A stretch of DNA of 64,000 nucleotides from Candidatus Micrarchaeota archaeon (GTDB lineage Archaea; Micrarchaeota; Micrarchaeia; Norongarragalinales; Norongarragalinaceae): assembly GCA_964630975.1 (NCBI GenBank), contig CAZVVY010000002.1:44633-108632 (forward strand), read 5' to 3'. A program made the translations under genes and the position numbers. Every line of letters starts with the position of its first letter. Position 1 is the first letter of the stretch. Below, in pieces: positions 32,576 through 57,979 of the stretch. Below the pieces are notes generated by a model, which saw nothing but the letters and a program-made list of their open reading frames with translations, made no database searches and had not been told where the DNA came from.

Positions 32576-32757
32576 TTCCAATTATCTTTTTGACCTTTCT
32601 TTTTAATGAACGTTTTTCTTCGGGGAAGAAAAAAGTTCGCGCCAATAACCACTCTGCCATCCCGGCTTCCAATTATCTTTTTGACCTTTCTTTTTAATGA
32701 ACGTTTTTCTTCGGGGAAGAAAAAAGTTCGCGCCAATAACCACTCTGCCATCCCGGC
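32576..32757 (-). repeat. Two perfect 91-nt tandem units upstream of tRNA-Ser, each a 63-nt spacer plus a 28-nt copy of the tRNA 5' end
   Basis: The spacers at 32576-32638 and 32667-32729 are identical. The fragments at 32639-32666 and 32730-32757 (GCCGGGATGGCAGAGTGGTTATTGGCGC in RNA sense) match tRNA positions 1 to ~27 with one extra G. Confidence 0.95.
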
Positions 32758-36422: not shown

Positions 36423-36557
36423 TCCCGCAGGCCAGATTTCCAAAACGCCTTTTTCTTTTGAAAAGAAAAAGTTTTTTTTTTGAACTGGCAACCCCCTGAT
36501 ATCCACTTGGATTTTCTAACTACAGTCAGGTGCTCTGCCAAATTGAGCTACTGCGGG
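36423..36557 (-). tRNA. tRNA-Tyr(GUA) with two introns: 19 nt at 37/38 and 42 nt inside the T-loop
   Basis: Hand fold: CCCGCAG-UA-GCUC-AAUUUGGCA-GAGC-A-CCUGA-CUGUAG[19-nt intron 36501-36519]A-UCAGG-GGGUU-GCCAG-UUCAAA[42-nt insert 36437-36478]U-CUGGC-CUGCGGG-A. The C1-G72 pair is typical of archaeal tRNA-Tyr. The mature length would be 74 nt. Confidence 0.8.
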
Positions 36558-57838: not shown

Positions 57839-57979
57839 TGCAGGGGGAGGGATTTCCTAAACCTTTCTTTTTGGGTGAAACACTTTTCTTTCCCAAAGAA
57901 AAGGGTTCTTCGAACCCTCGAACCCCTGAGGGACTAGGCCCTGAACCTAGCACGGTTGACCAGGCTTCGCTACCCCTGC
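57839..57979 (-). tRNA. tRNA-Leu(CAG) with a 56-nt insert in the T-loop
   Basis: Hand fold: GCAGGGG-UA-GCG-AAGCCUGGUCAAC-CGU-G-CUAGG-UUCAGGG-CCUAG-(variable arm UCCCUCAGGGGUUC)-GAGGG-UUCGAA[56-nt insert 57853-57908]U-CCCUC-CCCCUGC-A. The mature length would be 85 nt. The exact insert boundaries are ambiguous because GAA repeats at both ends. Confidence 0.8.

Follow-up and report, generated by a model that had tools for sequence, protein, structure and literature searches.

A 64,000-nt stretch of DNA from a Candidatus Micrarchaeota archaeon (contig CAZVVY010000002.1), hereafter called the window in its full length, carries a tRNA-Leu(CAG) gene at positions 57839-57979 of the minus strand, the T-loop of which is interrupted by 56 nt between tRNA positions 59 and 60. 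Our results make it moderately probable, taken jointly, that this insert is a 59/60 intron, that it consists essentially of one copy of a repeated three-tract module, that the tracts of this module show covariation of the triplex type, and that the module is a cassette spread by recombination. The window belongs to a genome assembly, designated G000, of 735 kb in 18 contigs with an estimated completeness of 89.6%.

The tRNA-Leu(CAG) gene reads GCAGGGG...GAGGG TTCGAA, followed by the 56-nt insert and then by T CCCTC CCCCTGC A. An earlier note on this DNA had claimed that the gene folds only if the 56 nt (57853-57908, minus strand; GAACCCTTTTCTTTGGGAAAGAAAAGTGTTTCACCCAAAAAGAAAGGTTTAGGAAA) are removed, and this was confirmed, since ARAGORN accepts only the spliced form as a correct cloverleaf. 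Spliced in silico, the gene encodes a tRNA-Leu(CAG) of normal type II form, in which the acceptor stem has 7 bp and the T-arm reads GAGGG/TTCGAAT/CCCTC, the predicted junction being ...GGGTTCGAA joined to TCCCTC.... The unspliced gene is missed by the Rfam tRNA model at the gathering threshold, and a permissive Rfam search of the locus returned only chance miRNA-like matches to the intron rod. ARAGORN calls a tRNA-Leu with a wrong 3' end from the unspliced gene because the start of the intron, GAACCC, mimics the 3' strand of the T-stem. An intron-free copy of tRNA-Leu(CAG) was not found in the 735-kb assembly, where this is the sole gene found for the anticodon CAG.

The 5' exon (57909-57979, minus strand; 71 nt, tRNA positions 1-59) ends with the T-stem strand GAGGG and the T-loop sequence TTCGAA and is conserved in orthologues, and the 3' exon (57839-57852, minus strand; TCCCTCCCCCTGCA) comprises T60, the T-stem strand CCCTC, the acceptor strand CCCCTGC and the discriminator A. 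Between them, the intron is composed of one module copy, in which a pyrimidine run (Y) is followed by two purine runs (R1 and R2), and of a splice tail, all on the minus strand. The clamp GAAC and then a C precede Y (CTTTTCTTT, 57895-57903), which forms the 5' arm of a hairpin; R1 (AAAGAAAAG, 57883-57891) follows a GGG loop as the 3' arm; and R2 (AAAAAGAAAGG, 57862-57872) is a third tract of the mirror type, with which Y is predicted to pair in the pre-tRNA to form the rod-like inner helix. The tail (TTTAGGAAA, 57853-57861) presents AGGA opposite T-loop positions 54-57, and its final AA together with T60 would form the 3-nt 3' bulge holding the splice site.

T-loop introns were sought genome-wide by scanning for a T-stem strand with TTCRA, an insert and the matching T-stem strand, and each candidate was spliced in silico and checked with ARAGORN. 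Including Leu(CAG), 18 tRNA genes contain an insert at 59/60, corresponding to about 40% of the approximately 43 tRNA genes found in the genome. A single geometry is shared by all 18 introns: the last two intron nucleotides and T60 make up a 3-nt bulge, and the four nucleotides before these two pair with T-loop positions 54-57, forming all four pairs in 11 introns and three of the four in the other 7, whereas the probability of at least three central pairs arising by chance is about 0.15 per gene. The earlier note had proposed a check for a bulge-helix-bulge (BHB) or relaxed fold at each junction, and this common geometry bears it out, with Leu(CAG) falling in the relaxed category. In Leu(CAG), three of the four central pairs are present (T54-A, T55.G and C56-G; G57 faces A), AA|T60 forms the 3' bulge, and the inner helix has at least 5 bp; RNAfold places both junctions in bulges adjoining the rod-like intron. 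As a separate observation on disrupted genes, the tRNA model matches only positions 4-67 of tRNA-Ile(GAT) (G000 C9:17700-17900, outside the window), and the flanks of this gene suggest inserts in both strands of the acceptor stem.

The genome encodes a splicing endonuclease of 382 aa with three units, which matches the epsilon2 enzyme of ARMAN-2 (PDB 4FZ2) over residues 12-382 with an E-value of 5e-125, as well as an RtcB ligase (568 bits). The ARMAN-2 epsilon2 endonuclease cuts both strict and relaxed motifs, and ARMAN-2 has 59/60 introns itself (PMC3239211). An endonuclease of this type points to Micrarchaeota (DPANN). Judged from its sequence, the Leu(CAG) insert is a genuine archaeal BHB tRNA intron at 59/60 with a predicted route of excision. 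The insert would be transcribed together with the tRNA; pairing of T-loop positions 54-56(57) with AGGA near the 3' end of the intron would place the splice sites in the bulges of a relaxed BHB; and the three-unit endonuclease of the epsilon2 type would cut both sites, after which RtcB would join the exons. The RtcB match itself (G000 C3:56948-58240, outside the window) lies inside a 795-aa open frame of about twice the usual length, which could represent an intein or a fusion.

The intron geometry also accounts for a feature that the earlier note had read as a family mark, namely a shared (T)GGAAA end. That proposal was not sustained: TTGGAAA was found 14 times in the window against 21.9 expected, and intron ends of the forms (T/C)GAA-AA and GGAAA are alike because the same nucleotides pair with T-loop positions 54-57. 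Seen through this pairing, the common (T)GGAAA end is a case of convergence and not of homology.

Relatives of the Leu insert occur outside tRNA bodies as well. Two identical 63-nt spacers lie upstream of tRNA-Ser(TGA) on the minus strand, copy 1 at 32667-32729 and copy 2 at 32576-32638, the latter directly upstream of the complete gene. Each consists of GAAC, T6CT2C, a CCC loop, GA2GA5, CGTTCATT, A5GA3GG and an 18-nt tail, with TTTTTCTTC, GAAGAAAAA and AAAAAGAAAGG as the Y, R1 and R2 tracts, and each is preceded by a 28-nt copy of the tRNA-Ser 5' end, or stump (32639-32666 and 32730-32757, minus strand). The block-by-block alignment of the Leu insert with the Ser spacer offered in the earlier note is correct, though marginal as a pairwise match (z 2.9); pairwise alignment was therefore dropped as proof of homology and replaced by a model built from other copies. 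Within the window, the exact 12-mer of that alignment is confined to the Leu insert and the two Ser spacers, three occurrences in all, which we count as weakening parts of the earlier note.

Intermediates connect the two elements more closely. The Ser spacer is identical to the canonical intron of tRNA-Glu(CTC) at 36 of 44 positions (z 10.9), the Leu insert aligns with the T-loop intron of tRNA-Lys(CTT) at z 14.4, and the Leu(CAG) intron body is 90-92% identical to the T-loop introns of Lys(CTT), Trp and His. A covariance model (model R1, a label distinct from the R1 tract) was constructed from 15 other copies, with the Ser spacers as well as the Leu insert and sequences close to it left out, and was used to search the whole genome. 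It retrieved the Ser spacers with an E-value of 4.7e-6 and the Leu insert with 9.3e-4, and all 24 matches with E <0.01 fall within tRNA introns, next to tRNAs or in two small repeat arrays (C13 and C1). By the evidence of the intermediates and of this model, the Leu insert and the Ser spacer are members of one family, as the earlier note had held.

Two further elements had been listed there as relatives, and the genome-wide covariance search separated them. The 59/60 insert of tRNA-Tyr(GTA) (36437-36478, minus strand) has the Y/R hairpin, placed after an A-run, and a perfect 4-bp BHB central helix; it has no 3' mirror tract, and the model matches it only in part (E 0.06). From these features, the Tyr insert is a partial or decayed member of the family. 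The 99-nt canonical intron of tRNA-Ser had to be set aside, as the whole-genome search gave no match of the model to it.

The module is approximately 47 nt long and comprises a 3-bp clamp, Y, a loop of 2-3 nt, R1, a linker of about 8 nt and R2. Its order can be written as N1N2A-C-(C/T), Y, loop, R1 as the reverse complement of Y, C-(C/G)-T-N2'N1'-AC-(G/T), and R2. The clamp covaries across copies, occurring as CGA/TCG, CAA/TTG, GGA/TCC, TGA/TCA, GCA/TGC and GAA/TTC. Stems measure 10-11 bp and loops 2-3 nt, the linker is 8 nt in 63 of 88 copies, only 2 of 1195 hairpin pairs are G.T wobbles, and a conserved C.C mismatch is kept. The defining feature of the family, overlooked by the earlier note, is the mirror relation of the second purine tract to the purine arm of the hairpin: R2 is R1 read backwards, and is neither a repeat of R1 nor a Watson-Crick partner of Y. 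Examples in the order Y/R1/R2 are T5CT3C / GA3GA5 / GA5GA3G, T6CT4 / A4GA6 / A6GA4, TCT3CT2CT2 / A2GA2GA3GA / AGA3GA2GA2 and T2CT4CT3C / GA3GA4GA2 / AGA4GA3G.

The mirror relation was evaluated on 105 unique copies in a set of 41 genomes, drawn from 19 copies in this genome and from model matches at 89 loci in the related genomes G001-G037. A mirror of R1 fits R2 better than a direct repeat does in 89 copies, equally well in 13 and less well in 3. The within-copy mirror score is 9.27, compared with 6.49 ± 0.22 when R2 partners are permuted, and none of 1000 permutations reaches the observed value, while no excess is seen for the direct-repeat score (observed 6.45, permuted 6.22). When each distinct R1 arm is given one vote (n=44), 39 arms favor the mirror, 5 are ties and none favors the direct repeat. 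The Ser spacer follows the same rule, its R2 fitting the mirror at 8/9 and the direct repeat at 6/8.

This tract arrangement is that of a class II intrastrand (purine-motif) triplex, which has Y, R and mirror-R on one strand, the complementary strand having the pyrimidine-motif order (PMC4666352). Both the Leu insert and the Ser spacer show the class II order of pyrimidine, complementary purine and third purine domain, and the third domain is, at the level of the family, a mirror with A*A-T and G*G-C triads in register. Connecting loops span 0-10 nt in Hoyne 2000 and 1-6 nt in the ITxF search (PMC4666352); with a hairpin loop of 2-3 nt and a linker of typically 8 nt (10 in Leu), the module is inside the Hoyne range and outside the ITxF range. 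The joint variation of Y, R1 and R2 is exactly that demanded by a class II intrastrand triple helix of the fold-back type, which suggests that the module may adopt such a structure. Under the mechanism we propose, the module would be a self-folding hairpin/triplex cassette, which recombination would copy, exchange and duplicate between the introns and flanks of tRNAs, leaving duplicated gene stumps behind. A copy would persist in a tRNA gene wherever its flanks form a cleavable BHB, and in the pre-tRNA Y would alternatively pair with R2, giving a rod-like inner BHB helix. In modeled pre-tRNAs, the Y:R2 rod probably supplies the inner BHB helix.

The same rod is the basis of an explanation that dispenses with the triplex, in which the module is an RNA helix switch: Y would pair with R1 as a hairpin or with R2 as the inner BHB rod, and the module would be kept for presenting splice sites. 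When exon context is included, RNAfold folds Leu(CAG), Leu(TAG) and Glu(CTC) preferentially into the Y:R2 rod; the pairing in Glu(CTC) extends over 14 bp, between R2 with GTT and AAC with Y; and many introns have GG after R2 and CC before Y. However, such a switch does not predict the mirror rule. R2 covaries as the mirror of R1 and not as the Watson-Crick partner of Y, with 0 of 44 arms direct, and a mirror R2 costs the rod one C.A mismatch and one G.U pair. Nor can the rod account for covariation of the mirror type, since whichever pyrimidine and purine runs face each other, the oppositions are only of the Watson-Crick or wobble type. Moreover, the three-tract rule also holds in trailers and leaders, which have no BHB, and the hairpin is nearly devoid of G.U wobble, unlike a structure under RNA-only selection. 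We judge a helix switch without a triplex to be unlikely.

Module copies are numerous in this genome and occupy several kinds of position. Of the 18 T-loop introns, 16 are module copies (Tyr through its hairpin only), and the bodies of the Glu(TTC) and Ala(TGC) introns are unrelated. Canonical introns with the module are found in Ser(CGA), Leu(TAA) and Glu(CTC). Module 3' trailers start 5-9 nt past the tRNA end in two Val genes, Gly(GCC), Arg(CCG), Arg(CCT) and one other tRNA, and a copy precedes tRNA-Leu(TAG), in addition to the two Ser spacers. The proposal that members of the family sit both inside and outside tRNA bodies is supported by these leaders and trailers.

A scan using motifs only, with no model, identified 23 Y/R1/mirror-R2 motifs in the genome, among them the Leu insert and both Ser spacers, compared with 0-1 in ten dinucleotide shuffles. 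This result bears on the idea that the resemblance is convergence of generic low-complexity sequence, made up of terminator hairpins with T-runs and of A-rich promoter tracts. tRNA promoters in this genome often do have A-rich purine tracts upstream of the TATA box, and T-run/A-run hairpins put T-runs on both strands, as a bidirectional terminator would. Besides the excess over shuffles, near-identical copies in different contexts (45/49 and 36/44), the covariation of the clamp and the mirror tract, the confinement of matches to tRNA and small-RNA loci and a few repeat arrays, and the tolerance of T6 to T10 in the introns of relatives all speak against it. The low-complexity explanation is largely refuted, and we give it a very small probability.

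Two other sets of repeats were observed outside the window. Behind a box C/D small RNA (ATGATGA...CTGA...GTGATGA...CTGA; G000 C3:36079-36200, minus strand) lies a composite copy related to the module, in which a Y/R hairpin is accompanied by two GC-rich hairpins and, late in the element, a purine tract; this composite recurs downstream of tRNA-Pro(GGG) (C3:20640-20730) and makes up the 116-nt intron in the T-loop of tRNA-Arg(CCT) (C14:1573-1822). A tandem array at G000 C1:77300-77600 has a period of about 72 nt (…GGCCAAATAGCGATGTGGATGCTGACCAAGTTACGCGAACCTTTTTCAAAAAAAGCTTCACCAAAAACACGC…), runs into an assembly gap and contains one weak module copy.

Across the order, 32 of the 41 genomes contain the module; a single genome has as many as 24 copies, and the distribution among families is patchy. 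In the relatives, 73 loci were read. ARAGORN assigned 21 of these loci to canonical introns, 10 to introns in the T-loop and 5 to trailers, and those remaining, assigned by eye, are mostly tRNA genes with the module in canonical introns of two-intron genes, the D-loop, near position 26 (tRNA-Ser), the anticodon stem, or 53/54. Other loci lie directly behind tRNA ends, and a few are beside opposite-strand tRNAs or near protein genes. In intron and trailer copies, the Y-R1-R2 order always runs in the tRNA sense. The earlier note had depicted an element proliferating in this organism; given a module shared by most genomes of the order and residing mostly in 37/38 introns in the relatives, its spread is neither peculiar to this organism nor recent.

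Orthologues of tRNA-Leu(CAG) in G001, G018 and G005 have introns at the same 59/60 site with different module bodies, and tRNA-Leu(CAG) in a genome of another family has no insert. In the congeneric G001, the Leu(CAG) intron is identical at 45 of 49 positions to the 3' trailer of tRNA-Gly(GCC) in the genome studied here, from which it follows that bodies would move between introns and flanks while the site remains unchanged.

Such turnover is difficult to reconcile with an origin from split tRNA genes, which the earlier note had advanced and according to which the insert is the fused 3' trailer and 5' leader of former tRNA halves, and the Ser spacer shares that origin as a free-standing leader or promoter. 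In its favor, the module is found in leaders and, starting 5-9 nt beyond tRNA ends, in 3' trailers; a TATA-like ATTAAAAA at about -32 overlaps with R2 of the Ser spacer; and similarity between leaders and introns is known for split tRNAs (reviewed in PMC4033280). Yet no separately encoded tRNA halves were seen, the Leu exons being contiguous, 56 nt apart on one strand, and the 56-nt insert is too small for a terminator, a promoter and a complementary leader, with no TATA-like box fitting at a workable distance. The same module also occupies introns at 37/38, the D-loop, near 26, 53/54 and 59/60 in relatives, and the swapping of bodies at one orthologous site between congeneric genomes indicates turnover rather than a frozen fusion scar. 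The fused trailer-leader origin thus found no support, and we regard it as quite improbable.

Duplicated gene ends accompany module copies at several loci. In tRNA-Ser, the 28-nt 5' end occurs three times, flanking the module copies. Ahead of the tRNA-Gly(TCC) gene (G000 C8:27745-27930, outside the window) stand a 17-nt duplicate of the gene's 5' end, GCGGCGATGGTCTAACG, and a small T/A hairpin spacer, with a promoter-like ATTAAAAAAA upstream of the stump. At G000 C13:7990-8230 (outside the window), a protein gene is followed at its end by two module copies spaced about 100 nt apart, each with the repeat GCGTAATCC(A/G)CGAGCGAAAACTGTTTTGA behind it; a unit of about 30 nt occurs three times, forming a stump-cassette array without a tRNA. 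Among the relatives, G037 has a 15-nt tRNA stump by a module copy, and at locus L080 (G011:C10:9105-9310) a module copy lies between copies of the first ~40 nt of a GAPDH-like gap gene starting with MVRIAINGFGRIGR, so that a duplicated 5' stump of a protein gene stands upstream of the full gene. Elsewhere among the relatives, the direct repeats next to module copies are a unit of about 33 nt and the 3' ends of tRNA-Gln. A tRNA-Ser from another family (L072, G026:C51:9145-9356) was observed to have a module intron right after the D-arm, near position 26, which is the point at which the tRNA-Ser stumps in the window break off.

Short multi-copy hairpins, some of them between direct repeats, are reminiscent of REP/PATE-like elements mobilized by an IS200/IS605-type (Y1 HUH) transposase, and this origin was considered. 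The transposase domain PF01797 is absent from G000 and from the module-rich G029, G031 and G037, whereas it is present in the module-free G027, G033 and G040, and the flanking repeats of 15-45 nt are unlike the products of Y1 transposases. With no correlation between PF01797 and module content, the Y1 transposase was rejected as the mobilizer, and we give an origin of this kind almost no credence.

A more ambitious extension of the recombination mechanism holds that the Y-R1-R2 cassette is a functional fold-back triplex and, as an 'introner', drives the process by which BHB introns in DPANN archaea are gained, replaced and spread. We consider this tentative and put it at well below even chances. 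The triplex would arise either in RNA of one strand or, at strongly transcribed tRNA genes, in the non-template strand of the DNA; it would stall replication or transcription and so trigger template switching or recombination, by which the cassette is copied along with a piece of the target; and the outcome would be stump-cassette-gene arrays, with new tRNA introns where the flanks form a BHB.

Several points weigh against the combined interpretation of the Leu(CAG) insert as a spliced intron formed by a triplex-type cassette. The BHB motif of Leu(CAG) is relaxed only, with its G57 x A mismatch, and the case for splicing is drawn from sequence, enzymes and the predicted fold. In the pairwise comparison of the Leu insert with the Ser spacer, 28 of 2000 dinucleotide shuffles score equally. 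The Leu copy has a linker of 10 nt instead of 8, and its R2 fits the mirror and the direct repeat of R1 equally (8/9 each), so that its assignment to the triplex module rests on the family. Within the family, the copies are kin by descent, and the permutation and binomial figures accordingly overstate independence; the case for a physical triplex comes from tract covariation. A proposed shortening of T-runs inside introns relative to trailers, as in an attenuated terminator, appeared true in this genome, failed in relatives (introns T6-T10) and was discarded. Purine-motif triplexes are reported not to form with all-RNA strands, and the relevant molecule could thus be single-stranded DNA or the complementary strand.

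Several of these elements are already known individually, including T-loop 59/60 introns, heavy tRNA disruption and the epsilon2 enzyme in Micrarchaeota, the copying of tRNA introns, and bacterial triplex repeats. ARMAN-2 (Candidatus Micrarchaeum) has 59/60 T-loop introns with strict or relaxed BHB motifs, many disrupted tRNA genes and the epsilon2 endonuclease (Fujishima et al. 2011, PMC3239211; Hirata et al. 2012, PMC3488258), and the present genome resembles it in its 59/60 introns, its large fraction of disrupted tRNA genes and its full-length match to the three-unit endonuclease. The ARMAN-2 papers address intron positions and enzyme specificity; here, by contrast, there is a shared intron body, 16 of 18 T-loop introns deriving from one module (Tyr partially), and the module is found outside tRNAs too.

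In Thermoproteales, introns have been copied between tRNAs (PMC4033280). Similar introns in different tRNA species imply copying between genes in both cases, whereas the present system belongs to another phylum, has another endonuclease type, and features a defined three-tract unit, trailers and leaders, and duplicated stumps. The earlier note had cited mainly Thermoproteales as the precedent, to which Micrarchaeota (ARMAN-2, with epsilon2 and 59/60 introns) must be added as the relevant case.

The class II intrastrand triplex repeats of bacteria, namely PIT elements, BoxC and TMECO (Hoyne et al. 2000; Holder et al. 2015, PMC4666352), likewise have the pyrimidine, purine and mirror-purine order on one strand, occur in multiple copies and are linked to rearranged loci. 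They differ in being G/C-rich, intergenic and not tied to tRNAs, while the archaeal module is A/T-rich, resides mostly in putatively spliced tRNA introns and has an additional covarying 3-bp clamp; the likeness is one of sequence, and the 8-nt linker exceeds the 1-6 nt of ITxF. In Caldiarchaeum subterraneum, a displaced tRNA 5' fragment is separated from the gene by a 1.8-kb recombinase-encoding element (Sugahara et al. 2012, PMC3293823). That case shares a tRNA 5' fragment upstream of a complete gene and a context of intron gain, and differs in that here a 63-nt non-coding module lies between, twice in tandem, with no recombinase gene between the copies. In our literature search, no publication connected triplex or mirror repeats with tRNA introns of archaea, or brought together the Micrarchaeota introns, the copying of introns and the bacterial triplex repeats, an absence that is not in itself proof; as far as could be found, a triplex-type module in tRNA introns is unpublished.

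On a practical level, standard tRNA finders miss or mis-call about 40% of the tRNA genes of this genome. Proposed answers for tRNA introns include intron transposition, integrating elements and split-gene relics. The mirror purine tract covarying with a hairpin is a strong and unexpected structural signature, and the module is seen in three states, as an intron, as a gene flank and as a cassette with a duplicated target. As a copied unit defined to the nucleotide and traceable across an archaeal order, it offers a concrete handle on the spread of archaeal tRNA introns.

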